Of a stretch of 50,538 bases of DNA, positions 29,250 to 47,987 are shown one piece after another. The DNA is from Rhodanobacteraceae bacterium (lineage in GTDB: Bacteria > Pseudomonadota > Gammaproteobacteria > Xanthomonadales > Rhodanobacteraceae). Each line of letters begins with the position of its first letter. The first letter of the stretch is position 1. Both the position numbers and the translations under genes were made by a program. The stretch covers positions 1-50,538 of the forward strand of contig JAICHS010000001.1 of assembly GCA_025924775.1 (NCBI GenBank), written 5' to 3'. The notes beneath the pieces are model-generated. The model did no database searches. It had not been told where the DNA came from and saw only the letters and a list, made by a program, of their open reading frames with translations.

Positions 29250-30329
29250 ATGGGGCGACGAATCCTGTACGGCATCTATCACTGGGGCCTCGGGCATGCG
29301 ACGCGTAGCGTGGGCCTGATCCGCGCGTTGCTGGCGCGCGGTGATTCCGTGACCATCGTGGTGGCGCCGGGGCCGGGCATGTGCCTGCTGCAATCCGAGC
29401 TTGGCGACGCCTGCGAATTTTTCCCGTTCCGCGACACGCCGGCGCCCTTCAGCCGCTATCCCGCGATCTTCTACTTGCGCATGACCGCGGCGATGCCGTG
29501 GGTGCTGGCGGGTTACCGGCGCGAGCACCACCTCGCCGAAAAGCTGGTGGCCGAGCGACACTTCGACTGCGTGGTGTCCGACAGCCGGCTGGGACTGTGG
29601 TCGGCCGCGGTGCCGAGCTATTGCATCTTCCATTCGATCCACCAGCGCGTGCCGTTTTTCAGTGGGTTTACCGAACGCTTCGTGGAACGTGGGCAGCGCG
29701 ATCTGCTGCGCGGTTTCAGCAAGATCCTGGTCCCGGACGTTGCGGACAACGGCGGCCTGTCGGGCTGGCTGGGCCACGACCCGGTTTTCGATTGGGGCGA
29801 GGGCAGGCTGGTTTACATCGGACCGCTGTCCAGCGTGCCGCGCATGGACGTGGTGCAGGACATCGATGTGTTCTTTTCGGTGTCGGGTATCGAGCCGCAG
29901 CGTGGTCTGCTGGAACGCCTGGTGCTGGCGGCCTTGCCGTACCTGTCCGGGCGGATCGTGGTAACGCTGGGGCGACCGCAGGACGTCGAGGCACGGCGAG
30001 ACATCGGAAGTGTCACGGTATATGGCTACCTCGACCGAAAGCGTCAGGCCGAGATGCTCAACCGCGCCAAGCTGGTGATGACGCGCTCGGGCTACACCAC
30101 GCTTATGGAACTGGCAGGGCTGGGTCGCAAGGCGTTGTTCGTGGCGACGCCGGGGCAGAGTGAGCAGGAATATCTTGCGTACTTCCACCACGAGCGCGGA
30201 CACGTGTGGGCGGTCGAACAAAAACATCTGGACATCCCGCGTGACCTCGAGCGTGCGCGCGCGACCGCCGGCATTCCCCGGATGGACGTCTCGGCGTCAA
30301 TCGGGAATTTTCTGTCCGTCATCGGATGA
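29250..30329 (+). CDS. GT-B fold glycosyltransferase (MurG / MJ1255-like)
   Basis: ORF 29226..30329 (GTG) trimmed to ATG 29250. MGRRILYGIYHWGLGHATRSVGLIRAL is the GxGH loop. The C-terminal nucleotide-sugar block is MTRSGYTTLMELAGLGRKALFVATPGQSEQEYLA. Its 3' end overlaps the convergent HpnL-like gene by 33 nt. Confidence 0.7.
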   Translation: MGRRILYGIYHWGLGHATRSVGLIRALLARGDSVTIVVAPGPGMCLLQSELGDACEFFPFRDTPAPFSRYPAIFYLRMTAAMPWVLAGYRREHHLAEKLVAERHFDCVVSDSRLGLWSAAVPSYCIFHSIHQRVPFFSGFTERFVERGQRDLLRGFSKILVPDVADNGGLSGWLGHDPVFDWGEGRLVYIGPLSSVPRMDVVQDIDVFFSVSGIEPQRGLLERLVLAALPYLSGRIVVTLGRPQDVEARRDIGSVTVYGYLDRKRQAEMLNRAKLVMTRSGYTTLMELAGLGRKALFVATPGQSEQEYLAYFHHERGHVWAVEQKHLDIPRDLERARATAGIPRMDVSASIGNFLSVIG

Positions 30330-31295
30330 GGCGGGTTGCCGGGACTTTGGCATCTCGCGCCACATCAGCCCCACGATCGGCAGGCACAACAGCCAGATGG
30401 CGGCCGTCCACACGATGCGGAAGCCGAGCATCAAGGCCAGTCCGTTGGTGTAGTCGATGCCCCATGCGTGCGCCGCCAGCATGCCCAGCAGCTCTACCGT
30501 GCCGATCTGGCTGAACAGGCCCGCGCCAACCAGAATCATCGCCAGCGAGAACAGGTAAATCGTCGCGGCGGTGAGGTAACCCAACTGGTGCGCATCCATG
30601 CCGCGCCCGACCAGCCAGAAGGCCAGCGTCAACGCACCCAGGTACACCGCCGCCAACACGATGCTGATGGCCAGCATCAAGGGCGTGGACAACTTGCGCA
30701 GGCCCCGCAGCATTTCCAGCCCCGTGTGGGCGCCACGGCGCATCCACGCGCGCGACAGCCTGGCGAGGTGTGGGTGCGCGCGTTCGCCGAACACCACCCC
30801 GCCCGCCAGCAGCAGCGCGAACAGCGCCAGCATGGCCACGGCGATCCAGCGCAGGTCCGGCCAACCGGGGATGCCGACCACCGCCAGAAACAGGTACACC
30901 GCTGCAATTTCGGCCAGCAGCATCATCACGGTCGCGGATGCGCTGCGGCCAATGTGCACGCGCCGCGACGCCGACAGCACCCAGTTTTGCGAAAACAATC
31001 CCAGCGGCAGCGTCACCGTCAACTCGCCGACCGCGAACGCCAGCCAGAACGGCCGCGGTGGAATCCGCACGTCGATCTGGTTGAGCATCAGCTTCAGCTG
31101 CGCGGCCTTGCACACGAGATAACCCGCCGCCGCCGCCAGCGACAGCCACAGCACGCGAGCGGGCAACCTGACGACGCGCGTGAGCACCAGGTGCACGTCG
31201 CCGAGGCTGAAAGCGAACGCCAGCAGCGCCACCGCCAGCAGGATCGGCAGGATCAGCGTCGGCTTCAGCAAGGCGTGCGCCACGGCTTTCAGCAT
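30297..31295 (-). CDS. Polytopic membrane protein, LPG-synthase-TM / UPF0104 family (HpnL-like)
   Basis: 332 aa with about 8 predicted helices (MLKAVAHALLKPTLILPILLAVALLAFAFSLG...). It is the last gene of the hpnH operon (7-nt overlap with the acyltransferase). The HpnL label is by family resemblance plus context, not a search. Confidence 0.6.
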   Translation of the reverse strand: MLKAVAHALLKPTLILPILLAVALLAFAFSLGDVHLVLTRVVRLPARVLWLSLAAAAGYLVCKAAQLKLMLNQIDVRIPPRPFWLAFAVGELTVTLPLGLFSQNWVLSASRRVHIGRSASATVMMLLAEIAAVYLFLAVVGIPGWPDLRWIAVAMLALFALLLAGGVVFGERAHPHLARLSRAWMRRGAHTGLEMLRGLRKLSTPLMLAISIVLAAVYLGALTLAFWLVGRGMDAHQLGYLTAATIYLFSLAMILVGAGLFSQIGTVELLGMLAAHAWGIDYTNGLALMLGFRIVWTAAIWLLCLPIVGLMWREMPKSRQPASSDDGQKIPD

Positions 31296-32593
31296 GGCAA
31301 TACCCGCGCGACGTCGGGTACGAGGTCCTCAAGATTGTTGTCGAGGTAACGCACAACGTTGGCGGGCGTGTGCCAGCCGGGCGGCGCATCGCGCGAGCAG
31401 GCGTTGCGGAAGCGATCGCCCTCGCGGATCAGGAGTTCGCGGCGCTCCAGCCAGCGCAAGCGGGTGTTGACGATGCGGGCGACGCCGGCGTGCGCGAACA
31501 GCGGGTCCAGGCAAGGATGCACGCTGTGCAGCGCCGCATGCGCGTGCACGCACCAGTCCACCAGTTCAGCGCGTGTGAACGCCGTGGGTCCGTGCAGCAA
31601 CCAGTGCGCCAGCAGATGGCTGGGCGTGACCGGCGCCAATCCGAGGATCGCGTGGCGCAGGCCGGCATCGAATGCACGCCGATCCAGCGTGGTATCGGCG
31701 CGAAAGCGTTCGCCGATGCGGATCACGACCCGCGAACGGCCCGGCGCCAGCGTGTCGTAGGCAAGCGCCATCGGCTGGATCCAGGGTGGTGCCGCGGCCA
31801 TGTGCACGAGCCGGAAGAAACCGGCGCGGACGCGGCAGAAATGGCCGTCCATGGAAATGGTGCCTTCGGGCGCGAAGTACACACAGCGTCCCTGGTCCAG
31901 TCGTTGCGCGAAGTGGTCCAGTTGCGTGGTAACGGTGGTCCGCAACCTCGTGGCGATGGCGCGCCGCGCCCCCGGCTGCAAGCGACGCAAACCCCACCAC
32001 CCGTCCAGCGTTGCAGGGGGTGCGCGCGCCAGGCCATCGGCCAGCGCGGCGTGGCGCACCGCAAGCTCGCGCAGGCCGCGCGCATTGAGTAGTTCAGCAC
32101 AATCGGTCTGGCCCAAGCCTGCGTTGCACAGTGCCTGCAGCGCTTCGCCCAGTGTGAATTCCCGCATCCGGCGCATCGGCTCGGCGCGGCCCAGCGGGAA
32201 AAACCAGGTCAGCGAGATGCGCCCAAGCAAGGCCGGCAGCGGTTTGGGCCAGTGCACGGTCAGGCGTGACAGGATGCCGGGGCGGAACAGGTCCTCGCGC
32301 GTGGCGAAGAACGGCAACGGCCATTCAAAGCGCAACCCGCGCCGCCGCACCAGCACGGTGCCCAGCATCGGTCCATCCACGTCGCGCTGGTGGTTGGATG
32401 CAATCATGGTTCCGGGCGCGGTATGGAACGCCTCGGGCAGGATGACGCTACGCCGGTAGAACGCGTCGATCCACAGGTCGAAGCCCAGCTCGAGCAGCCA
32501 GCTGCCGAGCGGATGCGGATCCAGCCCGGCGTCCGGCAGCCACGGGAAGGCCCGGCGCGTTGGGTTCGGCGCAGGGGCGGCGTGGCGTTGCAT
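31289..32593 (-). CDS. PlsC/LPLAT-type acyltransferase with a long C-terminal extension
   Basis: 434 aa. Motif I is IASNHQRDVDGP (HX4D), with FFATREDLF and motif III YFAPEGTIS. About 200 further residues have no motif I recognise. Zero-nt spacing after the GT2 gene. Confidence 0.65.
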   Translation of the reverse strand: MQRHAAPAPNPTRRAFPWLPDAGLDPHPLGSWLLELGFDLWIDAFYRRSVILPEAFHTAPGTMIASNHQRDVDGPMLGTVLVRRRGLRFEWPLPFFATREDLFRPGILSRLTVHWPKPLPALLGRISLTWFFPLGRAEPMRRMREFTLGEALQALCNAGLGQTDCAELLNARGLRELAVRHAALADGLARAPPATLDGWWGLRRLQPGARRAIATRLRTTVTTQLDHFAQRLDQGRCVYFAPEGTISMDGHFCRVRAGFFRLVHMAAAPPWIQPMALAYDTLAPGRSRVVIRIGERFRADTTLDRRAFDAGLRHAILGLAPVTPSHLLAHWLLHGPTAFTRAELVDWCVHAHAALHSVHPCLDPLFAHAGVARIVNTRLRWLERRELLIREGDRFRNACSRDAPPGWHTPANVVRYLDNNLEDLVPDVARVLPC

Positions 32594-33712
32594 TCATGCC
32601 CGTCCGCGCAGATAGCGCCGGCCCTTCCACACCGAGCGCGTGCCGGCGAGGCCGCGTCCCGCGGAATACCAGGTCGCGGCCAGGAAAAAGCCGGCGGCGA
32701 GCGGCAGCAGCAGCGCAGCCAACGGGTTGCGGCGGTAGTACATCAGCGTGGGCAGATAACACGCGAGCAACGCCAGCACGGCCAGCAGCCCGATGGCGGT
32801 GGTGGCCTCGTTGCGGCCGCAGGCAAGCGCCAGCACCGGGACCCAGAACGCCAGGACCAGCAGGACCGAGGCGGCGAGTACCCGCGCCAGCGATTCGTGC
32901 AGCTGCACGAACGCGGTGCGCGCCAGCATGTGCGCGATGTCGCGGAACCCCGCGCGGCGCTCACTGGTGGCGTCGCGGGTCAACCCGATCCAGCAGCGGT
33001 AGCCGGCGTGCTTGAGGTGCGCGGCGAGGGTGCAGTCGTCGATCACGGCGCCGCGCCATGCGGCGAAGCCGCCAACCGCCAGCAGCGCCTCACGCTCGAG
33101 CAGGACCACGCCGCCGGCCGCTGCGGCGACGCGCGATCCGGCGCGGTTGGCCAGCGCAAACGGGTACAGCAGCTTGAAGAAATACACGAACGCCGGCAGC
33201 AGCCAGCGCGCCGCGAGGCCGCGCCAGCATGGCTCGGCGCACAGCGACGCCAGCGCGCAACCTGCATCGACCCGGCGTTGTAGCGGCGCCAGGATTCCGG
33301 GCGCCAGACGGATGTCGGCATCGAGCAGCAACACGCGCGGGGTGGTGACGTGCGCAAGACCTTGTTGCAGCGCCCACAACTTGCCGGTCCACCCGCCAGG
33401 GGGTGGCGTGCCGCGAATGACGCGCAGGTGGCCCAGGCCGCTGGTGCGCGCGATGGCCGCAGTGTCGTCGCTGGATTCATCGTCGACCACGAGCACCGCC
33501 GCGTCCGGCGCGGCCCGTGCCAGCGCGCGCAAGGTCGGGCCGATCACCGCGGCCTCGTTGCGTGCCGGGATCAACACCGTGAAGTCATTGCGCGGCGGCA
33601 CCGCGGGCGCGTCGGCTTCCAGCTGTTCGCGGCACGCCCACGCGCGCCACGGCGCCAGCATTACAGCGATCCAGCCGGCAAGCGCGACAGCGGCAAGGAT
33701 CAGCAGCGGCAT
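32594..33712 (-). CDS. Family 2 glycosyltransferase, hopene-associated HpnB-like
   Basis: ORF 32594..33799 trimmed to ATG 33712 (MPLLILAAVALAGWIAVMLAPW, TM). GT-A core is FTVLIPARNEAAVIGPTLRAL ... VLVVDDESSDDT ... GGWTGKLWALQQG ... LLLDADI. C-terminal TM helices are present. 10 nt downstream of hpnH. Confidence 0.7.
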   Translation of the reverse strand: MPLLILAAVALAGWIAVMLAPWRAWACREQLEADAPAVPPRNDFTVLIPARNEAAVIGPTLRALARAAPDAAVLVVDDESSDDTAAIARTSGLGHLRVIRGTPPPGGWTGKLWALQQGLAHVTTPRVLLLDADIRLAPGILAPLQRRVDAGCALASLCAEPCWRGLAARWLLPAFVYFFKLLYPFALANRAGSRVAAAAGGVVLLEREALLAVGGFAAWRGAVIDDCTLAAHLKHAGYRCWIGLTRDATSERRAGFRDIAHMLARTAFVQLHESLARVLAASVLLVLAFWVPVLALACGRNEATTAIGLLAVLALLACYLPTLMYYRRNPLAALLLPLAAGFFLAATWYSAGRGLAGTRSVWKGRRYLRGRA

Positions 33713-33722
33713 GGCGTTTGCG

Positions 33723-34853
33723 TCAGTGCTGGATGCCGCCGAAGTGCGCGATCGGGACGTCGCTGTGCGGATGCATCGGCGGTGGTGGCGTCGCGTCATA
33801 CATCAGCGGCGGATCGGCGGCGAACGGGCCGGTGAGCTTGGGGCCGCGCAGGCTTGCCCACAATGCCTTCCACGGACGCGCGATCGAATCGGCGGCCGCG
33901 GTGCCCTCGAAACCACAGTGCGCCATGCAGTTGGCGCACTTGGGGTTGCGGCCGACGCCGTAGTGGTCCCAGTCGGTGTTGTCCAGCAGCGCCTGCCAGG
34001 TCGGCTCATAGCCTTCATCCACCAGCAGGTAGCACGGTTTCTGCCAGCCGAACACGTTGCGGCAGGGCATGCTCCACGCGGTGCACTGATAACCCTGGTT
34101 GCCGCACACGAAGTCGATGAACAGGCTCGACTGCGAGAGCGCCCACTTGCGGCGATGCTGCTGCCTGTTGGTGAAGATCTTGCGCATCAGTTCCTTCGAC
34201 TGCCGCCGGCCCATGAAGACGTCCTGGCGCGGTGCATGCTCGTAGGCAAAGCCGGGCGAGAAGGTGATGCCATCGACCTTCAGATCGTTCGTGGCCCAGC
34301 TGAAGAACTCGGCGACCTCATCCGGTTTGGCCGTCTGGAACAGCGTGGTGTTGATGTTGACCCGGAACCCGCGGCGCTTGGCCTCGCGAATGGCGGCGGT
34401 GGCGATGTCGAACACGCCCTCGCGGCCGACGCTTTCATCGTGGCGTTCGCGCATGCCGTCCAGGTGTACCGAAAATGTCAACTGGTCGGACGGCGTGAAC
34501 AGGTCGAGCTTCTGCTGCATCAGGATCGCGTTGGTGCACAGGTACACGTACTTGCCGCGCGCGATGAAGCCATCGACGATGGCCTTGATGTCCTTGTGGA
34601 TGAGAGGCTCGCCGCCAGCCAGCGACACCATCGGCGCACCGCACTCGTCCACCGCCTGCATGCATTCCTCGACCGTGAGGCGTTGCTTCAGGATGTGCGA
34701 GTCGTAGTCGATCTTGCCGCAGCCGGGGCAGGCCAGATTGCACTGGAACAGGGGTTCCAGCATCAGCGTCAGCGGATAGCGCTGAACGCCGCGCAGTTTG
34801 CGCCCGATGATGTAGCTGGCAACCTTGAGTTGCTGACGAATGGGAATGGACAT
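33723..34853 (-). CDS. hpnH: Adenosylhopane synthase, hopanoid-associated radical SAM protein HpnH
   Basis: 376 aa, ATG 34853 with a GGAGG RBS. MSIPIRQQLKVASYIIGRKLRG, then LMLEPLFQCNLACPGCGKIDY (CxxxCxxC) and SLAGGEPL. The C-terminal cysteine-rich tail is CANCMAHCGFEG. Confidence 0.9.
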   Translation of the reverse strand: MSIPIRQQLKVASYIIGRKLRGVQRYPLTLMLEPLFQCNLACPGCGKIDYDSHILKQRLTVEECMQAVDECGAPMVSLAGGEPLIHKDIKAIVDGFIARGKYVYLCTNAILMQQKLDLFTPSDQLTFSVHLDGMRERHDESVGREGVFDIATAAIREAKRRGFRVNINTTLFQTAKPDEVAEFFSWATNDLKVDGITFSPGFAYEHAPRQDVFMGRRQSKELMRKIFTNRQQHRRKWALSQSSLFIDFVCGNQGYQCTAWSMPCRNVFGWQKPCYLLVDEGYEPTWQALLDNTDWDHYGVGRNPKCANCMAHCGFEGTAAADSIARPWKALWASLRGPKLTGPFAADPPLMYDATPPPPMHPHSDVPIAHFGGIQH

Positions 34854-35071
34854 CGCTGCCTCCGCTTCGCGCGTGTGCGTCGAATATTACCGGTGCGCGA
34901 CGCACACCGGTGGGCCGCCGACGATGGTGGACCGGCGCGTGTCAACGCGGCGTTTAGGCGCTGCGCACGGCGGATTCGTTGGGTTTCAGGGCGGATGCGC
35001 CGCCCACCGTTGCTGCGTGCGGCTAGTGTATGCTGGCACGTGATTCCACGGATCGTCAGGAGGCCGTCGCC

Positions 35072-35497
35072 ATGGCTGCCATTGCCGAACGGACGCGGGT
35101 TGCATTGTTCCCCGTCAACGCCGTGCTCGTGGCCGGGGCCACGTCACTGTTCATCGGCGCGCTGCTGAGCGACATCGCCTACTTCCGCAGCTACCAGATC
35201 CAGTGGAACAATTTCTCGTCGTGGCTGCTGGCCGGCGGCCTCGTCATCACCGCACTGGCATTCCTGTGGTCGATCGTCGAGTTGTTCCGTGCCCGCTGGC
35301 GCACGTGGCCGGCCTGGGCCTATTCCGTGTTGCTGCTGGCGACCTGGATAGTCGGCTTCATCGATGCGCTGGTGCACGCCAAGGACGCGTGGGCGACCAT
35401 GCCAGCCAGCCTGGTGCTGTCGGCCATCGTCGTGGCACTGGCGTGCCTGTCACTGGCATTTGCCTGGGCCGGGCTGCGTGCGGGAAGTGCGCGATGA
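35072..35497 (+). CDS. DUF2231-like membrane protein (4 TM)
   Basis: ORF 35030..35497 trimmed to ATG 35072, with the RBS caggagg 8 nt upstream. FPVNAVLVAGATSLFIGALLSDIAYF ... WLLAGGLVITALAFLW. Its stop overlaps the next start (ATGA). Confidence 0.6.
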   Translation: MAAIAERTRVALFPVNAVLVAGATSLFIGALLSDIAYFRSYQIQWNNFSSWLLAGGLVITALAFLWSIVELFRARWRTWPAWAYSVLLLATWIVGFIDALVHAKDAWATMPASLVLSAIVVALACLSLAFAWAGLRAGSAR

Positions 35498-36903
35498 AAC
35501 GCATGAATCTGCTGGCCGTCACCGCCGCTGCGATCCTGCTTGCCGGTTGCAGCGGCGGCAATGCGCCGCCCGAGCAGTACGGCGCCAATCCACAACTCCC
35601 GACCCCGCAGCGCGGCCTGTTGCCCAACATGACGATCGCCAGGCCGGCGGCCTGGGGGGATCGGTTGCCGACGGTGCCGCAGGGTTACGCGGTCAAGGCG
35701 ATTGCGACCGATCTTCGCATTCCGCGCCAGACCCTGGTGCTGCCCAACGGCGACATCCTTGTAGCCGAAGGCCGTGGCGGCAATGCGCCGAAACTGAAAC
35801 CCAAGGATGTGATCGCCAGCTACATCAAGGCCAAGGGTACGAGTCCGGTCAAGGGCGGCAACCGCCTGACCCTGCTGCGCGATGCGAATGGCGATGGCAC
35901 CTACGAATTGAAGACCGTTTTTGCCGATCACCTCAATGCGCCGTACGGATTGGCACTGGTGGGCGACACGCTCTACGTCGCCGACCAGGATGCGCTGGTG
36001 AAGTTCCACTACACCGTCGGCCAGACCCATGCGGACGGCGCGCCGGTCAAAGTCACCGACCTGCCTTCGGCGATCAACCATCACTGGACCAAGGCGTTGG
36101 CCGCCAGCGCGGACGGGCGGTACCTGTACGTCGGCATCGGCTCGAACAGCAACATCACCGAACGCGGCATGACCGCCGAAGTTGATCGCGCGCGGATCTG
36201 GCAGGTCGATCCGCGAACTGGAATGCATCGTGCCTATGCGACCGGCTTGCGCAATCCCACCGCGCTCGCGATCCAGCCCGGCACGGGGGCGCTGTGGGCG
36301 GTGGTGAACGAGCGCGACGAAATCGGCCCAGGCTTGGTGCCCGATTACCTCACCTCGGTGCGCGCGGGCGGCTTCTACGGCTGGCCGTACAGCTACTGGG
36401 GACGACACGTGGACGCCCGCGCCCAGCCGCAGGATCCGCAAAAAGTCGCGTCGGCAATCGTCCCCGACTACAGCCTGGGCTCGCACGTGGCCGCGCTCGG
36501 AGTCGCGTTCTCCTTGCCCGCGATGGGCGCGAAGTTTGCCGACGGCGTGTTCGTCGGCGAGCACGGTAGCTGGAACCGCGCCCATCCGGTTGGCTACAAG
36601 GTAGTGTTCGTGCCGTTCCGCGACGGTCATCCCGCCGGCGATCCGATCGATTTCGTGACGGGCTTTCGTGGCAAGGATGGGTTGACCCGCGGCCGGCCGG
36701 TCGGCGTGAGCGTTGATCCGCGCGGCGCGCTGATCGTTGCCGACGACCTGTCCAACACGATCTGGCGGGTGACGCCCGTCAAACCGGCAGCCGCAGCCAA
36801 CCCGCCCGAGTCCATGCCGGCGCCCCGCGAGGCACCACCGGCGGCACCCGCGACCGCGCCTGCTGCGGCGACGCCCCGTGCGCCCGGCGTGCCACAGGCG
36901 TAA
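35494..36903 (+). CDS. PQQ-dependent sugar dehydrogenase (sorbosone / soluble aldose dehydrogenase family) lipoprotein
   Basis: ATG 35494 inside ORF 35203..36903. MKRMNLLAVTAAAILLAGC|SGG is a lipobox. Beta-propeller blocks are PRQTLVLPNGDILVAEGRG, APYGLALVGDTLYVADQDALV, HWTKALAASADGRYLYVGIGSNSN, GLRNPTALAIQP, GFYGWPY and GEHGSWNR. There is a Pro/Ala-rich C-tail. Confidence 0.8.
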   Translation: MKRMNLLAVTAAAILLAGCSGGNAPPEQYGANPQLPTPQRGLLPNMTIARPAAWGDRLPTVPQGYAVKAIATDLRIPRQTLVLPNGDILVAEGRGGNAPKLKPKDVIASYIKAKGTSPVKGGNRLTLLRDANGDGTYELKTVFADHLNAPYGLALVGDTLYVADQDALVKFHYTVGQTHADGAPVKVTDLPSAINHHWTKALAASADGRYLYVGIGSNSNITERGMTAEVDRARIWQVDPRTGMHRAYATGLRNPTALAIQPGTGALWAVVNERDEIGPGLVPDYLTSVRAGGFYGWPYSYWGRHVDARAQPQDPQKVASAIVPDYSLGSHVAALGVAFSLPAMGAKFADGVFVGEHGSWNRAHPVGYKVVFVPFRDGHPAGDPIDFVTGFRGKDGLTRGRPVGVSVDPRGALIVADDLSNTIWRVTPVKPAAAANPPESMPAPREAPPAAPATAPAAATPRAPGVPQA

Positions 36904-37114
36904 ATACGACGCCATGCCGGGATTTGTGGAAGGCGCGTGCCGTCTCTCTCGTGGGCGTGGCCTGGTCGGGCCAGGTGCGCGAGCCGAGTGGGGACGCGTT
37001 CGGCTCGATGGCGATGGTTGCGCCTGATCTGCCGCGCGCCGATTGTGGTCGCGCAGCAACCGCAACATCGCGGGGAAAACGTAGGAAGCTTGGGTGTGGC
37101 GCGCCGCTTTCGAC

Positions 37115-39983: not shown

Positions 39984-41009
39984 TCAAGCAACTGATGCAA
40001 CCGCCAGACCCGCGGGGTCCGTTGACAAATCGATCACGGGAAAACCCGCGCGCGACGCGCGCCTGGCAAACTCCCGCAACCGCCCATCTTCCACGCCCAA
40101 CGTGATGCCGACGTCACCGTTGCCCGCGCCGCAGCTTTTGTAGACGCAACCGCAATCCGCGGCGATCGCCGCGATGGCCCGATGCTCACGGCTGGCGATA
40201 TCCACGCCCGCGGACTCGCCGAAGCGGGCCAGGGCATCCGCGTAAGCATGGAAGCTGGACAGGAAGGCAGCGGCATCGCTGGCGGCCAAGGCGTTGATAC
40301 CGCGTGACGAAATTGTAGCGAGTTCGTGCATCCCTTGTGCGTAACCGGCAGGCTCACGTTCGCGCCAAGCCGCGACCGCGGCCAGCATCGCGCCGGTCGA
40401 GGCGGGCCTGCCGCTGTACACGCAGCGCCAGTGCAGGCCGGACGGCCACGCGAGCGGCGCGACATGCGCGGCATCGCCTTCCAGCTGGAAGCGCGACAGG
40501 CCACCGACAAGCGACGCCGCGATGTCGATACCGCTGCCGCGGCCGTGCTGGATGCCGCGATGGGCGGCGATGGCGGTGTCGAGAGAAACCGGCGGTCGGT
40601 TTGCGCGTGCGTGCAAGGCGCCCAGCAACGCGACCGTCAGGGCGGCGCTGGAGCCCAGGCCCAGCTTGGCGCGGGCACCCGCGTGTTCGAAGTAGAACGC
40701 ATTGCTTTCGAGTTCGACGCGGCAGGGCGGCAGGGCTTCGCCACGCCCGAACTCGCCCAGCAGTTGGGCAACCCATGCGAGTTCGCCCGGTACCCCCTCG
40801 CGCCGGGCGTCGACGTCACCGCGCGCTGGCAGGCACGCCGCAAGTTCGAGCGTGGGCGAGACGATTTCCCAGTCCCCGCCGACGCTGTCGGCAAGCCGCA
40901 CGTGCGCGCGGCGGTTCACCGCCAGCACCAGCGCAGGCGCGCCTTCCAGCACCGCGTATTCGCCCAGCAGCACCAGCTTGCCGGGTGCGCTGGCCGTGAT
41001 GCGCGTCAA
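39984..41009 (-). CDS. Phosphomevalonate kinase (GHMP, ERG8/MvaK2 type)
   Basis: The track ORF 39984..41477 overlaps mvaD for 470 nt, so I trimmed it to TTG 41009, which overlaps the mvaD stop (TTGA). (M)TRITASAPGKLVLLGEYAVLEGAPALVLAVN is the PMK N-terminal signature. The GHMP motif is GLGSSAALTVALLGAL. 341 aa. The non-ATG start is inferred. Confidence 0.7.
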   Translation of the reverse strand: MTRITASAPGKLVLLGEYAVLEGAPALVLAVNRRAHVRLADSVGGDWEIVSPTLELAACLPARGDVDARREGVPGELAWVAQLLGEFGRGEALPPCRVELESNAFYFEHAGARAKLGLGSSAALTVALLGALHARANRPPVSLDTAIAAHRGIQHGRGSGIDIAASLVGGLSRFQLEGDAAHVAPLAWPSGLHWRCVYSGRPASTGAMLAAVAAWREREPAGYAQGMHELATISSRGINALAASDAAAFLSSFHAYADALARFGESAGVDIASREHRAIAAIAADCGCVYKSCGAGNGDVGITLGVEDGRLREFARRASRAGFPVIDLSTDPAGLAVASVA

Positions 41010-42037
41010 GCGTCGGCCTCGACCACGCGCGCGCCCGCGCCGAGTCCGCTCGGCAACACGTCCTCGACGCCCGCGACGCCGCGCAATGCCTCGACCACGC
41101 GCGCGGCGTGGTCCGGCAGGCACACCGCCTTCACCTGCGGCCCCGCGTCGATGGTGAAGAACACCCCCGTGCCGCCGCGCTGCAACTCGCGAATGCACTG
41201 GATGCACCCGACGGTCGCGGCGTTCCAGTAGATGAGGCCGGGTCGCGCGGACAGCATCACCGCGTGCATCGCAAGGCAACTGGCTTCGCCGGTGCGCGCA
41301 AGGCTCTCGAAATCGCGCGAGCGCACCGCGGCGCGGGCGGCGGCGAGGTCGGCAGGCACGGCCGCGATCCAGTCGCGGTAGTAAGGCGAGGTCTGCCGGG
41401 TACGGTCCATGCCGGCGCGCGAGCTGACGGTCTTCTTTTCGCGCGCGGTGATTGCGATCACGACTTCCAGTGGCCACGCCGCGGCTTCCAGCAGCGGCGT
41501 CGCGAAGGCGTCTTCGCCGTCGTCGCGCGTGCCCGCGGCCATTTCCACGAAGCCGCCGAAGATTGAACGCGCGGCCGAGCCGGAACCGCGTCGTGCGAGG
41601 ATCGACAATTCCCGTTGGTCCAGGTTCAACCCCAGGGCGTGGTCCACCGCGATCGCCAGCGCCGCGAAACCGGACGCCGACGATGCCAGTCCCGCGCCGG
41701 TGGGAAAGTCATTGCCGGATTCGATGTGCGCGCGCGTCGTGATGCCCGCGCGTGCGCGGAACAGGTCAAGAAACGCGCCGAGCTTGCGGCTTTGCGTGGC
41801 GTCGTGCCGGCCATTCAACGCGATGTCGTCAGCGGTGAGTGTGTCGTCAAAGCGCACGTGCGTGCGGGTGTGCAGCGCATCCAGCGTGATCGACAACGAA
41901 CCCGCCGCCGGCAGGTTCAAGGCATCGTCGCGCTTGCCCCAGTACTTGACCAGCGCGATGTTGGGTTGGGCTGTCGCAGTGGCGTGCCGGATTGGCGTAG
42001 TCATCCGTCGTAATTCGTCTTCAGTCACAGGGTACAT
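41006..42037 (-). CDS. mvaD: Diphosphomevalonate decarboxylase
   Basis: 343 aa. ATAQPNIALVKYWGKRDDALNLPAAGSLSITL, NDFPTGAGLASSASGFAALA, RRGSGSAARSIFGGF and FFTIDAGPQV are present. The start may be ATG 42037 or ATG 42004. Confidence 0.85.
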   Translation of the reverse strand: MYPVTEDELRRMTTPIRHATATAQPNIALVKYWGKRDDALNLPAAGSLSITLDALHTRTHVRFDDTLTADDIALNGRHDATQSRKLGAFLDLFRARAGITTRAHIESGNDFPTGAGLASSASGFAALAIAVDHALGLNLDQRELSILARRGSGSAARSIFGGFVEMAAGTRDDGEDAFATPLLEAAAWPLEVVIAITAREKKTVSSRAGMDRTRQTSPYYRDWIAAVPADLAAARAAVRSRDFESLARTGEASCLAMHAVMLSARPGLIYWNAATVGCIQCIRELQRGGTGVFFTIDAGPQVKAVCLPDHAARVVEALRGVAGVEDVLPSGLGAGARVVEADA

Positions 42038-42050
42038 TTTTCTCTTCGTT

Positions 42051-42087
42051 ATTCCGGGGCTGCCCGCCTGCGGGCAGAACCCGGAAT
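42051..42087 (-). other. Strong intercistronic stem-loop between hpnA and mvaD
   Basis: attccgggg-ctgcccg-cctg-cgggcag-aa-cccggaat: 8 + 7 bp with a small internal loop and a 4-nt loop. It ends 14 nt before the mvaD ATG (42037). No U-run on the minus strand. Confidence 0.5.
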
Positions 42088-42186
42088 CCAGTTTCTCAAT
42101 GCGAAGAACCGATTCCGGGTTCCAGCGCCGATGGAGCGGCGATGGCCTCGGAATGACGATGGAAAATCATCGAATCTGGACCAAGA

Positions 42187-43179
42187 TCAGCGGAGGTATC
42201 CATTGTCCCGGAACCATTGTATTGCGTCGGCCAGTGCCTCCCGCGCCGGGCGCGCGTACCAGCCGAGTTCGGTTTCAGCCTGCCGGCTTGAAAAATACAT
42301 CCGGTGCCGCGACAGCTTCACGCCGGCGACGCTGATGGTCGGCGGATTGCCGCTTATGCGTGCCCACGCCTCGGCCACGTGGGCAATCGGCAACACCGCG
42401 GCATGCGGCAGCTTGAGCCAGGGCCCGTGGCGGTGGGTGAGTTCGGCAATCGTTTGCAGGATGGCGCGCAGGCTGAGGTTTTCGCCCCCCAGCACGTAAC
42501 GGCGGCCGCGCTGCCCGCGCTGGTATGCCAGCACGTGGCCTTCGGCGACGTCGTCCACGTGCACGATGCACAGGCCGGTGTCGACATAGGCCGGCATGCG
42601 CCCGCGCGCGGCGTCGAGGATGGTGCGCCCGGTCGGCGTGGGCTTGCGGTCGCGCGGGCCGACGGGCGCCGCCGGGTTCACGATCACGATGTCGCTGCCG
42701 GCACGCGCGCATCGGCGAACCAGCGCCTCGGACAGGAACTTGGAACGCTTGTAGGCGCCGACCATGTCGGCCAGGCGTGCCGGCGTGGCCTCGTCGGCGG
42801 GCGTGCCATCGTGGTTGAATCCCAGCGTCGCCACGCTGGACGTGTGCACGATGCGGGCCACGCTGGAGCGTCGTGCCGCCGCCAGGATGTTGTGGGTGCC
42901 GCGCACATTGGCGCGGTAAATCGCGTGCGGGTCGCGCGCCCACAGCCGGTAATCGGCGGCGACGTGGAACAGGCCGGTACAGCCTTGCAGCGCGCGCTCC
43001 AGCGAGGGCGGATCCAGCAGGTCGCCACGGGCGGTCTCGATGGCCAAGCCGTCGAGGCTGGTGGTATCGCTGCCGGCCCGCACCAATGCACGCACCGGAT
43101 AGCCGTGGCGCAACAGCGCGCGCACCACCGCCGAGCCCACGAATCCGTTGGCGCCACTGACCAGGATGCGCCCGCTCAT
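42187..43179 (-). CDS. hpnA: Hopanoid-associated NAD-dependent sugar epimerase/dehydratase-like protein HpnA
   Basis: The track ORF 42187..43794 overlaps hpnG, so I trimmed it to ATG 43179 (ATGA overlap with the hpnG stop). MSGRILVSGANGFVGSAVVRALLRHGYPVRALVR is the Rossmann GxxGxxG. FHVAADYRLW and YKRSKFLSE (YxxxK) are present. 330 aa. Confidence 0.8.
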   Translation of the reverse strand: MSGRILVSGANGFVGSAVVRALLRHGYPVRALVRAGSDTTSLDGLAIETARGDLLDPPSLERALQGCTGLFHVAADYRLWARDPHAIYRANVRGTHNILAAARRSSVARIVHTSSVATLGFNHDGTPADEATPARLADMVGAYKRSKFLSEALVRRCARAGSDIVIVNPAAPVGPRDRKPTPTGRTILDAARGRMPAYVDTGLCIVHVDDVAEGHVLAYQRGQRGRRYVLGGENLSLRAILQTIAELTHRHGPWLKLPHAAVLPIAHVAEAWARISGNPPTISVAGVKLSRHRMYFSSRQAETELGWYARPAREALADAIQWFRDNGYLR

Positions 43180-43892
43180 GCGGCCAGCGACGCGGCGGTC
43201 GCCAGCGTGCGCCGGGCGTGCGCGAAATCCCGCGCCAGCGCGCGTGCCGCGCGCCAAGTCGTGGGGCCGCCCAGGGCGATCGCCGCGAGCATACGCAGCG
43301 AAAACCCGCCATCGGCGCCGTCCAGGGCGTGCACGATGCTCGCGGGCAGTTCGCGCGCCAGCGGGTCGCAAATCGCCTTGACGGCCACGAACGGCAGCTT
43401 GGCGCGCAGCGCGACTGCCGCGATCGGCGCGGCTTCCATGTCCACCGCGACGGCACCGCTGTGCGTGGCCAGTGCCTGTTTCTCGGCCGCTGAGGCCACC
43501 GGTTGCGGGGTCGACCACAGCGCGCCGCGGTGTACCCGCAGGCTGCCGGACAGCGCGGCGGCCAGCTGCTCGCTTGCCAGCGCGTCGGTGGCGAACCCGG
43601 GGTCGTCGTGTGCGTAGCGGATGTGGTCGGGAATCAGCACGTCGCCAGGCGCAAACCCGGCATCCAGCGCACCAGCCACGCCCCAGTTCGCCAACCGGGT
43701 GACGCCGCAGGTCAGCAGGCGTTCGGCGGCGCGCATCGCGTTGTGCGGGCCAATGCCCGACACCGCGATCCAGCCGCGGTGCCAGCGCTTGCACTCGCCG
43801 GGGTGCAGGCCGTACACACCGAGGCTGTGCGCTTCCGCCGGAAGCGCCACCACCAAGCCCGTGCCCTCAGTGAAACTGCCCGGTGTGGACAT
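43176..43892 (-). CDS. hpnG: Hopanoid-associated phosphorylase/nucleosidase HpnG (PNP_UDP fold)
   Basis: 238 aa. GLVVALPAEAHSL, IAVSGIGPHNA, LANWGVAGAL, GDVLIPD, AVAVDMEAAPIA and AVKAICD are present. ATG 43892 would overlap shc by 26 nt. An alternative is TTG 43856, preceded by GAGGG. Confidence 0.75.
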   Translation of the reverse strand: MSTPGSFTEGTGLVVALPAEAHSLGVYGLHPGECKRWHRGWIAVSGIGPHNAMRAAERLLTCGVTRLANWGVAGALDAGFAPGDVLIPDHIRYAHDDPGFATDALASEQLAAALSGSLRVHRGALWSTPQPVASAAEKQALATHSGAVAVDMEAAPIAAVALRAKLPFVAVKAICDPLARELPASIVHALDGADGGFSLRMLAAIALGGPTTWRAARALARDFAHARRTLATAASLAA

Positions 43893-45807
43893 TGTGGAAG
43901 CGCACCAGCGCCCAGTAGGGAAAGTAACGGTTGTAGCCGTGGTATTTCAGGTAGAACACGCGCGGAAAACCCGGCGCGTTGAAACGCGAGTCGTGCCATT
44001 CGCCATCGACCTGCGTCTTCAGCAGGTATTCGATGCCACGCGCCACCGCGTGGCTGTCGGCCTCGCCGGCTTCCAGCAGCGCCAGCAGCGCCCACGCCGT
44101 CTGCGCCGGGCCACTGTGGGCGCCGCGTCCGCGCAGGTTTGGATCAAGGTAGCTGTCGTTGCCTTCGCCCCAGCCGCCGTCGGCCTGCTGCACCGATTCC
44201 AGCCAGGCCACCGCGCGGCGGACCGCGGGGGCATCGACGGCCATGCCGGCCCCGCGCAGCGCGACCAGTACCGACCACGTGCCGTACAGGTAATTGGTGC
44301 CCCAGCGGCCAAACCACGCGCCTTCGCCGGTTTGATCATCCAGCAGGAACTGCAGCACGCGCTGGCGCGCCTTGCGGTCCTGCGCGCGGTCGAGCATCGA
44401 CAACAGTGTCAACACGCGCCCGCTGACGTCGCTGGTGGGCGGATCCAGCAACGCGCCGTGGTCGGCGAACGGAATCTGGTTGAGCCACTGGTGGTTGTTG
44501 TCGGCGTCGAAGGCCGCGAAACCGCCGTTCTTCGATTGCATCCCGCACAACCAGTCGGCGGCGCGCGTGATGGCCTCGGCATGCTGCGCACGCTCGGGGG
44601 ATTGCTGCAGCGCGCGGGCGACCACCGCGGTGTCGTCGAGGTCGGGATACGCATCATTCCTGAACTGGAACGCCCAACCGCCACCGGCAAGCTGCGGGCG
44701 ATAGGCGCGCCAGTCACCCGGTTCATCGCGCAGCTGGCGTGCCACCAGCCACGCCAGCGCGCGGCGGGTGGCGCCCGCGGGCGCGGCGGGGTCCTCCTGC
44801 AGCGCGAGGCAGGCCAGGCCGGTATCCCACACCGGGGATACGCAGGGCTGGCACCATGCCGCGTGGTCGTGCACCACCAGCAGGTCGTCGATGGCCTTGC
44901 GGGTTTCGCGGCGTGCCGGGTGGTCGGCCGGCAGCCCCAGCAGTGCCAGGGCCTCGTAGGCGTTGACCATCGCGGGAAAGATCGCGCCCAGGCCGCCATC
45001 GCCGTTGCGGCGCGCGAGGATCCACGCCTTGGCGCGCTGCAGCGCATACGCACGCACGCGGCGCGGGATCAGGCCATCCAGGCGCCGCATGCCTGCCTCG
45101 CACAGGCACAGCGCGCGGTTCAGCAGCGAGCGCGGGCGGAAGTAATGTCGTTCCTGCCGCGGCGGCGTGGTGAACAGTTCCGCGACGTGCAGGCCGAGCG
45201 GGTTGGCGGCGCGCGGTTTCAGTGTCGTCAGCACCGACAACGGCACCATCACCGTGCGCGACCAGTACGACACCTTGCTGAGGTTGAAGGGGAACCAGCG
45301 CGGCAGCAGCACGATCTCGACCGGCAGGAACGGCACGCCGCGCCACGGCACGTCACCGAACAGGGCCAGCGTGATGCGGGTGAACACGTTGCTGCGCGCC
45401 GCGCCACCGCGCGCAAGGATGGCCGCACGGGCATGCAGCATGTGCGGCGCGTCGGCACGGTCGCCGGCCAGTTTCAGCGCGAAATAGCACTTCACGCTGC
45501 AACTGATGTCCAGCGCGCCGCCCGGGTACAGCGGCCAGCCGCCGTTGCGGCACTGGCGTTCGCGCAGGTACTCGGCGAGGCGCGATTCCAGCAGGCGGTC
45601 GGATTCACCGAGGTAGTGCAGCATCAGGATGTATTCGGCCGGGATCGTGCAGTCGGCTTCCAGTGGATACTGCCAATAGCCGTCCGCGTGCTGGTGTGCA
45701 AGGATGCGCGCGCGCGCCGCGGCGATGGCCGCGCCCAGGCGGTCGGTCGCGGCGGTCTGGCCCGGAACCGTGGTGCCTGTTTGCGGCATGCTGGAGTCGG
45801 GGGGCAT
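43867..45807 (-). CDS. shc: Squalene-hopene cyclase
   Basis: ORF 43867..45843; I prefer ATG 45807, which lies 4 nt after the sqs stop, with 45843 as the alternative. Catalytic YPDLDDTAVVARAL (DxDDTA). Repeated QW motifs (QCRNGGW, RRNGDGG, MQSKNGGF, QTGEGAWFGRWG, QQADGGWGE). GWAFQFRN. Confidence 0.9.
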   Translation of the reverse strand: MPPDSSMPQTGTTVPGQTAATDRLGAAIAAARARILAHQHADGYWQYPLEADCTIPAEYILMLHYLGESDRLLESRLAEYLRERQCRNGGWPLYPGGALDISCSVKCYFALKLAGDRADAPHMLHARAAILARGGAARSNVFTRITLALFGDVPWRGVPFLPVEIVLLPRWFPFNLSKVSYWSRTVMVPLSVLTTLKPRAANPLGLHVAELFTTPPRQERHYFRPRSLLNRALCLCEAGMRRLDGLIPRRVRAYALQRAKAWILARRNGDGGLGAIFPAMVNAYEALALLGLPADHPARRETRKAIDDLLVVHDHAAWCQPCVSPVWDTGLACLALQEDPAAPAGATRRALAWLVARQLRDEPGDWRAYRPQLAGGGWAFQFRNDAYPDLDDTAVVARALQQSPERAQHAEAITRAADWLCGMQSKNGGFAAFDADNNHQWLNQIPFADHGALLDPPTSDVSGRVLTLLSMLDRAQDRKARQRVLQFLLDDQTGEGAWFGRWGTNYLYGTWSVLVALRGAGMAVDAPAVRRAVAWLESVQQADGGWGEGNDSYLDPNLRGRGAHSGPAQTAWALLALLEAGEADSHAVARGIEYLLKTQVDGEWHDSRFNAPGFPRVFYLKYHGYNRYFPYWALVRFHNVHTGQFH

Positions 45808-45811
45808 GGCC

Positions 45812-46942
45812 TTACTTGAAGGCTTGGGCCGGTCCGCAGGCATCGCTGCGCGGCCAGGTGGAATGCGGGTCGGGCAGCAGCCCGCCCCAGTCGGAAGCCA
45901 GCGCCTGCAGCGGCAGGTCCTCCGCCATCCGACCGAACCAGCCGCGCAGCACCCGGCTGTAGCCGGCGAACAGCCGCGTGACGATGACGATCTTTTTCAC
46001 CACCTGCCGCGACACCTTCACCTGTGCGCCGGCGGTGAAGTCGGGCTTGGCCAGGATCGACGCCAGGGTCCGCATGGCCAGGCCCAGCGCGATCAGGCAG
46101 AAGCGGCGGATGCCGACTTCCCGTTCCGGAATCAGCAGGGTGTAGTCGAGCGCGTTGCGCAGGTGGCTGTGGGCGATACCGATCAGCTGCGCATAGGTGC
46201 GGCCAAATGCCGCCGGTTGCTGGCCGCGATGCACTTCTTCCAGTCGCACGCCGGCGCGCGCGAACAGGTCGTGCGGCAGCCAGCACACGCCGCGGTCGTG
46301 GTCCTCCCAGAAGTCCTTCAGGATGTTGGTCATCTGCAGGCCCTGTCCAAACGACACGTCGAGCGCGGCCATCGCGTCGCGGCGTTCAGCGATGCGGGGC
46401 GAGTAGTCGCAGAACAGGTCGGTGAGGGTCTGGCCGACGATGCCCGCGACGTAGTAGCAGTAGCGGTCCATCTCGCGCATGTTGGGGAGCCCGGCGACGC
46501 TGGCGCGGCGCTCGAAGCTGGGCATGCCGGTGCACATGACCTGCACGCAGCGCGCCAAAGCCTGGCGCTGCGCCAGGTTGAAGCCGTCGGTCACCTCGAT
46601 GATGGCCGGCGTGTGCGCCACCAGGTCAAGCTCCGCCGCCAGCGTGTTGCCGCGTAGCAGCGGTGCCAGGTCGCGGGCGAATGAAGCGGGATCTTCGGTT
46701 GCGGCGACCACCCGCGTGAAGCGGTCGTGGAACTCCTGCTTTACGTCGCTGGCCAAGGTCGCTTCGTCCTCGATGGTGTCCGCGATCCGGCACAACAGGT
46801 AGGCGTTGGCGATCACCCGGCGCAGGCGCGCGTCCAGTTGCGGAATCGTCAGCGCGAACGTGCGCGATACCGCGGGCAGGATGCGCGTTTGATAGGCTTC
46901 GGCGTCTCGTCGCGAAACGCTGGCGGAAGCTGTGGCGATCAT
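45812..46942 (-). CDS. sqs: Squalene synthase (single-enzyme farnesyl-diphosphate farnesyltransferase, Sqs type) with a C-terminal extension
   Basis: ORF 45812..47092 trimmed to ATG 46942 (AAGGAG RBS 9 nt upstream). AVSRTFALTIPQL, YLLCRIADTIEDE (first Asp-rich motif), YCYYVAGIVG and MTNILKDFWEDHDRG (second DxxED). At 376 aa it is longer than HpnC/HpnD-type enzymes. No hpnE-like oxidase is in the window. Confidence 0.75.
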   Translation of the reverse strand: MIATASASVSRRDAEAYQTRILPAVSRTFALTIPQLDARLRRVIANAYLLCRIADTIEDEATLASDVKQEFHDRFTRVVAATEDPASFARDLAPLLRGNTLAAELDLVAHTPAIIEVTDGFNLAQRQALARCVQVMCTGMPSFERRASVAGLPNMREMDRYCYYVAGIVGQTLTDLFCDYSPRIAERRDAMAALDVSFGQGLQMTNILKDFWEDHDRGVCWLPHDLFARAGVRLEEVHRGQQPAAFGRTYAQLIGIAHSHLRNALDYTLLIPEREVGIRRFCLIALGLAMRTLASILAKPDFTAGAQVKVSRQVVKKIVIVTRLFAGYSRVLRGWFGRMAEDLPLQALASDWGGLLPDPHSTWPRSDACGPAQAFK

Positions 46943-47032
46943 CCTGTGGGTCTCCTTCGGCGCGTCGCCGGCCGACGTTTTGATCCTACGCATTGTGCGT
47001 GAAGATGAGGTGGAAGTCGCGCGGAGGCTGCT

Positions 47033-47062
47033 TTGACAGGCATGCGGCGCCGTCGCTAGGCT
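47033..47062 (+). promoter_or_regulatory. Sigma70-like promoter candidate for ispA
   Basis: TTGACA (47033..47038), an 18-nt spacer, then TAGGCT (47057..47062), about 29 nt before the ispA ATG. By-eye match only. Confidence 0.25.
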
Positions 47063-47090
47063 CGCGGCGCGGCGGCGCGCGCCGCCTGAC

Positions 47091-47987
47091 ATGGGGAATG
47101 CGATGGCCTTTGCCGAACGCGTGGCGGGCTACGTTGAGCGGGTCGAACACGCGCTGGATGCGCGCCTGCCCGCGGTGGATACGCCGCCGGCCTCGTTGCA
47201 CGCGGCGATGCGCTACGCGGCGCTGGGCGGCGGCAAGCGCATGCGCCCCCTGCTGTGCTACGCCAGCGGCGAGGTGCTGGGTGTGCCGGCCGGGCAACTC
47301 GACGATGCCGCCTGCGCAGTCGAATGCGTGCACGTGTTTTCGCTGATCCACGATGACCTCCCGGCGATGGACGACGACGACCTGCGGCGCGGCAAGCCGT
47401 CCACACACAAGGCTTTCGGCGTGGCTACCGCGATCCTTGCCGGCGATGCCTTGCATACGCGCGCGTTTGAAATCCTGGCGGGTGATGGTACCCGCGATAC
47501 CGCCGCGCGCCTGGGTATGGTTGCGGTGCTGGCGGCGGCGGCCGGTTCCCGGGGCATGACCGGCGGGCAGGCCGTGGACCTGGAATCCGAGGGCAGGCAG
47601 CTGACGGCCGCCGACCTCGAGGCGCTGGACCGCGACAAGACCGGCAAGCTGATCCGCGCGGCGGTGTTGATGCCGTGCTGCGCGCTGCCGGATTTGCCGC
47701 GCGCATCGCGTGACGCCCTGGACCATTTCGCCGAATGCATGGGCCTGGCGTTCCAGATCAAGGACGACGTGCTGGATGTGGAAGGCGAGCAGGCGCTCAC
47801 CGGCAAGACCCACGGCGCCGACGCTGCGCGCGGCAAGGCAACCTATCCGTCGCTGCTGGGCCTGGACCACGCCAAGCAGCGTGCCGATGCGCTGTACAAC
47901 GAAGCCCTAGCCGCGCTGGACTGCTTCGGCGATGCCGCCGAACCGCTACGCTGGCTGGCGCGCTATATCGTGCAGCGCGACCGCTGA
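47091..47987 (+). CDS. ispA: Farnesyl diphosphate synthase (trans-prenyltransferase)
   Basis: 298 aa. GGKRMRP, FARM VHVFSLIHDDLPAMDDDDLRRGKPSTH, GKTGKLI and SARM FQIKDDVLD, GKATYPSLLGL. Divergent from sqs. No xseB or dxs flank it. Confidence 0.85.
   Translation: MGNAMAFAERVAGYVERVEHALDARLPAVDTPPASLHAAMRYAALGGGKRMRPLLCYASGEVLGVPAGQLDDAACAVECVHVFSLIHDDLPAMDDDDLRRGKPSTHKAFGVATAILAGDALHTRAFEILAGDGTRDTAARLGMVAVLAAAAGSRGMTGGQAVDLESEGRQLTAADLEALDRDKTGKLIRAAVLMPCCALPDLPRASRDALDHFAECMGLAFQIKDDVLDVEGEQALTGKTHGADAARGKATYPSLLGLDHAKQRADALYNEALAALDCFGDAAEPLRWLARYIVQRDR

Follow-up and report, generated by a model that had tools for sequence, protein, structure and literature searches.

The stretch of DNA analysed here (the window, 50,538 nucleotides: positions 1 to 50,538 of contig JAICHS010000001.1, assembly GCA_025924775.1, from a soil-type Rhodanobacteraceae bacterium) carries a complete lower mevalonate (MVA) pathway inside a hopanoid (hpn) gene cluster. 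We consider this set of genes to be a chromosomal supercluster, inherited over a long time, that serves the synthesis of isoprenoid precursors and hopanoids, and its MVA module to be most likely the only route of the cell to isopentenyl diphosphate (IPP), and we would put the probability of this reading at roughly 0.65. Gene identities were obtained with profile searches against Pfam and NCBIfam, and the open reading frames (ORFs) were chosen by the GC content of third codon positions (GC3).

The genes lie in two blocks on the minus strand (Table 1). In the order of transcription, the right block consists of sqs, shc, hpnG, hpnA, a structured spacer of 149 nt, mvaD, the gene for phosphomevalonate kinase (PMK), a fused gene for 3-hydroxy-3-methylglutaryl-CoA (HMG-CoA) reductase and mevalonate kinase (HMGR::MVK) and idi. 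The left block continues with hpnH, an HpnB-like family 2 glycosyltransferase (GT2) gene, a PlsC-type acyltransferase gene and a gene for an HpnL-like membrane protein. At the right edge ispA is divergent, and at the left edge a GT1/GT28-like glycosyltransferase gene is convergent on the plus strand. The gene list and the pathway logic from HMG-CoA to adenosylhopane and ribosylhopane in a preliminary description of this DNA agree with the Pfam and NCBIfam assignments, and the coupling overlaps it listed are all present in the sequence: ATGA, where the start codon of hpnA overlaps the stop codon of hpnG, TTGA, where the TTG start of the PMK gene overlaps the stop codon of mvaD, and 8 nt between the TTG start of idi and the end of the MVK part. 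The last of these recurs in a distant relative, locus L081. Two points of the layout had to be corrected. The leftmost gene was thought to be on the minus strand, but positions 29226-30329 hold the plus-strand glycosyltransferase gene and the HpnL-like gene is at 30297-31295, and the statement that the cluster has almost no spacer does not hold for a 2.1-kb insertion at 34993-37111 and the structured 149-nt insert at 42038-42186. Judged from the sequence, the cluster would comprise two minus-strand transcription units, one from sqs to idi and the other from hpnH to the HpnL-like gene.

In the proposed pathway, HMGR::MVK, PMK, diphosphomevalonate decarboxylase (MDD) and IPP isomerase (IDI) would convert HMG-CoA to IPP and dimethylallyl diphosphate (DMAPP), IspA would form farnesyl diphosphate (FPP), and a one-enzyme squalene synthase (SQS) would produce squalene. 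Shc would cyclise squalene to hopene, HpnH would add adenosine, and HpnG would remove adenine to leave ribosylhopane, from which bacteriohopanetetrol is made. Decoration or handling of the side chain is probably the task of HpnA, the acyltransferase, the GT1 enzyme and the HpnB- and HpnL-like proteins. HMG-CoA synthase (HMGS) would have to be encoded elsewhere in the genome. The MVA module would feed all isoprenoids, quinones and undecaprenyl phosphate included, and its role would thus extend beyond hopanoids. Previously, Frateuria aurantia of the same family has been found to produce bacteriohopanetetrol (PMC3910546).

Of the mevalonate enzymes, HMGR, MVK and MDD score above the curated cut-offs (416, 233 and 298 bits). 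The fusion places two consecutive steps of the pathway in one protein, in which neither the catalytic residues (E83, K268, D284 and H382) nor the GHMP motifs vary, and its architecture of three Pfam domains is found in 120 of 120 homologues among the matches listed. The remaining GHMP kinase was assigned as PMK because of its position and by elimination, and its alignments to 46 loci begin at residue 1. In public sources HMGR::MVK is labelled merely 'HMG-CoA reductase, degradative'. A catabolic role for the reductase was ruled out by the fusion to MVK, by PMK, MDD and IDI as the downstream steps and by the lack of an HMG-CoA lyase.

The hopanoid part contains shc, a squalene synthesis gene next to it and the side-chain genes hpnH and hpnG. 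The squalene synthase gene appears to be of the single-enzyme type, as its best matches in the PDB are to eukaryote-type SQS (2e-19, versus 3e-10 for CrtM), and its top NCBIfam match is squal_synth, which is below the cut-off and ahead of HpnD and HpnC. It is directly upstream of shc, and the HpnCDE trio is absent from this position. The longest sqs ORF and ispA start back to back (47090-47093), which would leave promoters no room. It is most likely that sqs starts at the ATG at 46942, which is preceded by an AAGGAG Shine-Dalgarno motif and near which the alignments of distant homologues begin, and with this start the divergent intergenic region becomes 148 nt long. No match to the sigma-70 consensus was found in that region. 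The start of shc at 45807 follows a public gene call (646 aa, P0121). Downstream, hpnG overlaps the 3' end of shc by 26 nt and has the canonical position after shc, as in all relatives compared.

In the left block, the HpnB-like GT2 gene has its probable start at the ATG at 33712, 10 nt past the hpnH stop, although the longest ORF reaches 33799. The acyltransferase ATG comes directly after the GT2 stop (TGAATG), and the stop of this gene overlaps the start of the next by 7 nt. The acyltransferase is conserved in relatives, L081 included, and the HpnL-like gene, whose product matches no NCBIfam model, is kept after it in the same loci. The GT1/GT28-like gene has weak NCBIfam matches to MurG and MJ1255, and it accompanies the cluster as an accessory gene in 10 loci, in varying positions.

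The arrangement is widespread. Window proteins were compared with the best 80 loci by tblastn, and carriers of HMGR::MVK were counted in a species scan with one genome per species. The fusion is present in at least 593 species genomes in several gammaproteobacterial orders, including Rhodanobacter, Dyella, Oleiagrimonas, Nevskia, Wenzhouxiangella and metagenome-assembled genomes (MAGs) named Salinisphaerales, Arenicellales and Natronospirales, and a protein search gave at least 8000 protein clusters of homologues. The fusion protein of the window shares 92-95% identity with proteins from MAGs of Rhodanobacteraceae, and a proteobacterial host, as had been supposed from the surrounding genes, agrees with the organism being a member of this family. 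Among the best 80 loci, 14 species-level loci have the whole set from ispA to hpnH in the same order, and ispA is divergent beside sqs in 26. Where enough sequence was available, shc was linked upstream in 24 of 56 loci and hpnH followed idi in 38 of 60. Four Wenzhouxiangellaceae loci (L066, L068, L072 and L075) show the same linked order with shc and hpnH. In Dyella and Nevskia the order mvaD-PMK-HMGR::MVK-idi-hpnH-GT2 is retained, and hpnA lies about 7 kb upstream. In Rhodanobacter proper only mvaD-PMK-HMGR::MVK-idi is present, set among housekeeping genes such as metH and aroE. No hopanoid genes are close to it there, and the same is true of the cassette in several Wenzhouxiangella genomes. 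L081, a soil metagenome locus found via a search with Shc, has an identical contiguous array, and its protein is identical to an NCBI entry from a MAG named Casimicrobiaceae.

The identities to the window fall in step across these taxa, from 95 through 82, 77 and 73 to 66% in HMGR::MVK and from 82 through 70, 65 and 64 to 57% in Shc, which fits the MVA and hopanoid genes having been inherited jointly. Genes for the fusion with 64-70% identity to that of the window were also seen on short contigs of MAGs assigned to Thermoanaerobaculia (L057), Calditrichaceae (L076) and Dermatophilaceae (P0066), and these are either binning errors or transfers between phyla. In Dyella monticola (L061), hpnA and mvaD are separated by a B12-binding radical-SAM gene (4406-6034), whose domains would allow an enzyme like HpnP, HpnR or HpnJ.

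Both junctions between hopanoid and MVA genes are interrupted in the window. The 2.1-kb insertion between idi and hpnH, in which a frame switch is visible in GC3, is missing from every related locus compared, where the gap is roughly 100-300 nt, and no repeats were seen to flank it. At the hpnA-mvaD junction, the hairpin noted in the preliminary description exists as a strongly folding structure (folding energy -67.9 kcal/mol, z = -3.85); however, it is not an ancestral feature but a palindromic insert at a junction without a gap in about ten relatives. The same terminal repeats occur at this junction in L007 and L009, other relatives hold unrelated inserts there, and no further copies of the repeats were found within the window. 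The spacer was also considered as a terminator or a known RNA, and this was rejected as it has no T-run and no Rfam match and is variable or absent in relatives. No gap separates hpnA from mvaD in these ten relatives, where the two abut or overlap, and the junction is tight in L081 as well. The ancestral junction between the hopanoid and the MVA genes was thus seamless, and the ancestral cluster, as far as it can be read from sequence comparison, would be one near-seamless array.

Table 1. Features of the supercluster and its immediate surroundings, in the order of their positions in the window.
Feature	Position	Strand	Basis or remark
tRNA-Arg(CCT)	28937-29013	minus	ARAGORN and Rfam tRNA 63 bits; left-flank landmark, no functional part of the cluster
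GT1/GT28-like (MurG-like) glycosyltransferase	29226-30329	plus	Pfam Glyco_tran_28_C and Glyco_trans_1_3
HpnL-like integral membrane protein (LPG_synthase_TM / UPF0104)	30297-31295	minus	PF03706 36.9 bits (cut-off 33.4)
PlsC-type acyltransferase	31289-32593	minus	PF01553 39.8 bits
HpnB-like GT2	32594-33712	minus	TIGR03469 HpnB 299 bits (cut-off 379); Pfam GT2 families
hpnH, radical-SAM adenosylhopane synthase	33723-34853	minus	TIGR03470 505 bits (cut-off 225); Radical_SAM and DUF3463
Window-specific 2.1-kb insertion between idi and hpnH	34993-37111	plus	Outside the pathway
orf155	35030-35497	plus	No family match
Lipoprotein with GSDH/NHL beta-propeller	~35500-36903	plus	Pfam GSDH and DUF7133; lipobox-like ILLAGC at 35533
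idi, type 1 (Nudix) IPP isomerase	37115-37714	minus	NF002995 169 bits (cut-off 127); TTG start
HMGR (class II)::MVK fusion, 752 aa	37707-39965	minus	TIGR00532 416 bits and TIGR00549 233 bits in one ORF
GHMP kinase assigned as PMK	39984-41009	minus	TIGR01220 82 bits (cut-off 166); best PDB match 3k17 (2e-19)
mvaD, MDD	41006-42037	minus	TIGR01240 298 bits (cut-off 171); MVD-like_N and MDD_C
Palindromic insert in hpnA-mvaD spacer	42047-42158	.	Terminal inverted repeats CGTCATTCCGrGGC
hpnA, hopanoid-associated SDR/epimerase-like protein	42187-43179	minus	TIGR03466 465 bits (cut-off 368)
hpnG, hopanoid-associated nucleosidase/phosphorylase	43176-43892	minus	TIGR03468 148 bits (cut-off 187); PNP_UDP_1 102 bits
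shc, squalene-hopene cyclase, 646 aa from second ATG	43867-45807	minus	TIGR01507 792 bits (cut-off 431)
sqs, single-enzyme (eukaryote-type) squalene synthase	45812-46942	minus	SQS_PSY 176 bits
sqs-ispA divergent intergenic region, 148 nt	46943-47090	.	Presumed promoters for both genes
ispA, farnesyl diphosphate synthase	47091-47987	plus	NF045485 331 bits (cut-off 275)

The view that the MVA module is the only IPP route is based on the clade-wide presence of the cassette and its survival away from hopanoid genes, and on what is found, and not found, of the methylerythritol phosphate (MEP) pathway. No homologues of dxs, ispG or ispH were detected in the window or in 81 MVA-cassette loci (~1.43 Mb in total), and the profile searches of the window gave no other MEP gene either. 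In Table S1 of PMC10663253, in the rows covered here, which hold no Rhodanobacter, Nevskia or Wenzhouxiangella, Dyella caseinilytica is positive for HMGS, HMGRII, MVK and DPMD but negative for IspF, IspG and IspH, and its HMGS is encoded elsewhere in the genome. In the same rows, eight relatives (Dyella telluris, D. thiooxydans, three Frateuria, Dokdonella, Ahniella and Aerosticca) have the full MEP pathway and no MVA pathway, and the four other genomes with HMGS, HMGR, MVK and DPMD all (4/4) lack IspG and IspH. As the MVA-bearing Dyella is without the last MEP enzymes and the MEP-type relatives are without MVA, the cassette is most likely the only IPP route, and on this comparison it would have replaced the MEP pathway in the lineage of the window. 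One gene of the window, an E1-type dehydrogenase (18682-21141), was considered as a possible Dxs and rejected, having E1_dh domains and a dxs score of 49 bits against a cut-off of 466.

Several observations weigh against this reading. D. caseinilytica is, in the covered part of the same table, still positive for Dxs, Dxr, IspD and IspE, which may be a truncated remnant of the MEP pathway or an artefact of the detection threshold, and the direct data on MEP loss are limited to this one Dyella species, in which the cassette is seen by table scores only. Neither HMG-CoA synthase nor thiolase was found within the 50.5-kb window in profile searches. PMK, SQS, HpnG and the HpnB-like GT2 score below their NCBIfam cut-offs, although in each case the Pfam family is correct and the position conserved. 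No promoter or terminator signals above chance were found, so the operon structure is read from gene spacing alone. Given the 2.1-kb and the palindromic inserts, read-through across the idi-hpnH and hpnA-mvaD junctions is not obligatory. Additionally, the close relative L012 (SCQU01000013.1, fusion identity 92%) has the sqs-to-idi block, but in the 9 kb downstream of idi neither hpnH nor the accessory block is present, and the left block is thus separable from the rest.

The positive scores for Dxs, Dxr, IspD and IspE in D. caseinilytica also speak for a different function of the cassette, that of a dedicated, private supply for hopanoids beside a housekeeping MEP pathway, as in the terpenoid clusters of actinomycetes. 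This was the view of the preliminary description, and it gains some ground from the physical position of the MVA genes within the hpn cluster, with hpnA next to mvaD and idi next to hpnH, and from the fact that some bacteria, such as Listeria and some Streptomyces, carry both pathways. In actinomycetes the cassette runs MK-MDD-PMK-IDI(type 2)-HMGR(class I)-HMGS, occurs alongside MEP and is confined to certain strains. The window resembles it in that the MVA genes adjoin the terpenoid pathway they feed, but here IDI is of type 1, HMGR is of class II and fused to MVK, the gene order is another, there is no HMGS at the locus, and the spread is clade-wide with no sporadic pattern from strain to strain. 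A cassette found in so many species genomes (at least 593), and standing alone in Rhodanobacter, does not fit the description of private, as it persists without nearby hopanoid genes there and in several Wenzhouxiangella. Moreover, no family member covered in the table combines MVA with the last MEP steps. A private supply is therefore unlikely in our view.

The adjacency might also be a historical accident, in which a housekeeping MVA operon happens to neighbour a hopanoid operon with no shared regulation or selective linkage. Rhodanobacter does have the two gene sets apart, the hpnH block is missing from L012, and the window tolerates inserts at two junctions, while the promoter and terminator evidence favours neither side. 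However, mere neighbours would not be expected to have start and stop codons that abut or overlap at hpnA/mvaD in ten relatives and L081, or to keep the interleaved order hopanoid-MVA-hopanoid across several orders, and a parallel MEP version of the same design exists (L082, below). We regard an accident as distinctly improbable, and retain the interpretation of an inherited supercluster with a general isoprenoid function.

From its position, the cluster could be taken for a genomic island that was acquired recently by integration at tRNA-Arg. It adjoins tRNA-Arg(CCT), with a 37-nt partial tRNA copy 135 nt off, a tRNA-Ala lies beyond ispA in some relatives, and the same supercluster occurs in the MAG named Casimicrobiaceae. 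In contrast, no integrase or mobility family was found among the scanned ORFs between 27 and 50 kb, the repeat derives from the tRNA 5' end and does not flank the cluster on both sides, and GC content (0.64-0.71) and GC3 (0.81-0.87) of the cluster equal those of the flanks in a window with a GC of ~67%. The left flank, consisting of tRNA-Arg and an aldehyde dehydrogenase (ALDH) gene, is syntenic in the relatives L009 and L010, and cluster and flank have diverged in step (66-92% identity in cluster genes versus 86-87% in ALDH). The earlier impression that the block is no recent import is therefore borne out by its composition and by the left flank held in common with close relatives. An island integrated at the tRNA, which would call for an integrase, flanking repeats of the tRNA 3' end, a deviant composition and an empty site in close relatives, is extremely unlikely. 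The identities falling in step, the syntenic left flank and the flank-like composition together indicate an old, jointly inherited arrangement.

Some features of the flanks were noted besides. The 37-nt direct repeat (28995-29031 and 29130-29166, 97% identical) consists of the first 19 nt of tRNA-Arg(CCT) and 18 nt of its leader, duplicated 135 nt upstream, and about 98 nt with a nested hairpin separate the copies. In L010 the intact tRNA aligns with the truncated copy of the window, and the region looks like a small insertion or duplication in the tRNA-Arg 5' region. The tRNA adjoins the GT1 gene in L009 and L010 as well. To the right of ispA there is a second insertion of ~2 kb (47990-50037), missing from L002 and L003, which encodes a hemerythrin-like ORF, a short-chain dehydrogenase/reductase (SDR) and a protein of the YceI family, whose members bind polyisoprenoids. 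The neighbour of ispA in L005, L009, L010 and L015 is tRNA-Ala(CGC) instead.

Isoprenoid precursor genes as part of hpn clusters are known from the MEP pathway: paralogues of ispH, dxs and ispG are found in the hpn clusters of Zymomonas, Rhodopseudomonas, Burkholderia and Streptomyces coelicolor. The closest counterpart was seen in bacterium BMS3Bbin12 (L082, BDTV01000069.1, 1-12776), where ispG is followed at a distance by GT2-hpnH-ispH and then by a divergent dxs-sqs-shc-hpnG, with Shc 66% identical to that of the window. The scaffold is the same, and dxs, ispH and ispG sit in the slots that the MVA genes and idi occupy in the window. The difference is that single MEP paralogues are embedded in such clusters, and the whole lower MVA pathway in the window; the MVA genes of the window are probably also the sole copies in the genome, as opposed to the extra copies of the MEP-type clusters. 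Surveys of hopanoid genes mark isoprenoid-pathway genes within hpn islands as well (PMC12583986). Having precursor genes in hpn clusters is, in the light of the MEP counterpart in L082, an established design, of which the window holds the mevalonate version, and none of the individual enzymes is new.

Three precedents come nearest in the literature searched. The environmental genome of the SD22 acidobacterium 'Mor1' is described as having no MEP pathway, but most of the MVA genes together with shc, hpnH and a squalene synthase of the SQS type, and according to its authors bacteriohopanepolyols (BHPs) are made there 'in a completely different way' (PMC5462960). It is like the window in MVA, SQS, shc and hpnH, but it is from another phylum and a single genome. 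The MVA pathway and squalene synthase have been reported as specific to Wenzhouxiangella compared to Marinicella (PMC7691419), a study that treats squalene without hopanoids or gene linkage, and a listing of the bacteria in which MVA genes mainly occur includes the gamma-proteobacteria (PMC6107057). Our literature search found no paper that describes this cluster in Gammaproteobacteria or Rhodanobacteraceae, and none on the HMGR::MVK fusion. The suggestion that the arrangement is undescribed therefore stands as regards a characterising paper, but the linked architecture itself is common in this clade and also occurs beyond it (L081).

The labelling of hopanoids once led to the discovery of the MEP route, and the hopanoid producers studied so far draw on that pathway. 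Every alphaproteobacterium in a hopanoid survey from 2025 does so (PMC12583986). It is conceivable, though we hold this only tentatively and would not favour it, that the array, with sqs at one end, hpnH at the other and the MVA genes between them, is a self-sufficient module that has spread as a whole across gammaproteobacterial orders, and possibly to other phyla, and the gain of which permitted repeated loss of MEP. In that case the hopanoids here derive from mevalonate, and HMGR::MVK would channel mevalonate between two consecutive steps. The fusion could also serve as a compact part for pathway engineering. If our inference of MVA as the only IPP route holds, a large gammaproteobacterial clade of soil and saline environments uses mevalonate to make its hopanoids, its quinones and the carrier lipids of its cell wall. 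This would affect the interpretation of 13C and D/H values of hopanoid biomarkers and the sensitivity to fosmidomycin and statins that is predicted for these bacteria, and it would inform how one isoprenoid pathway replaces another.

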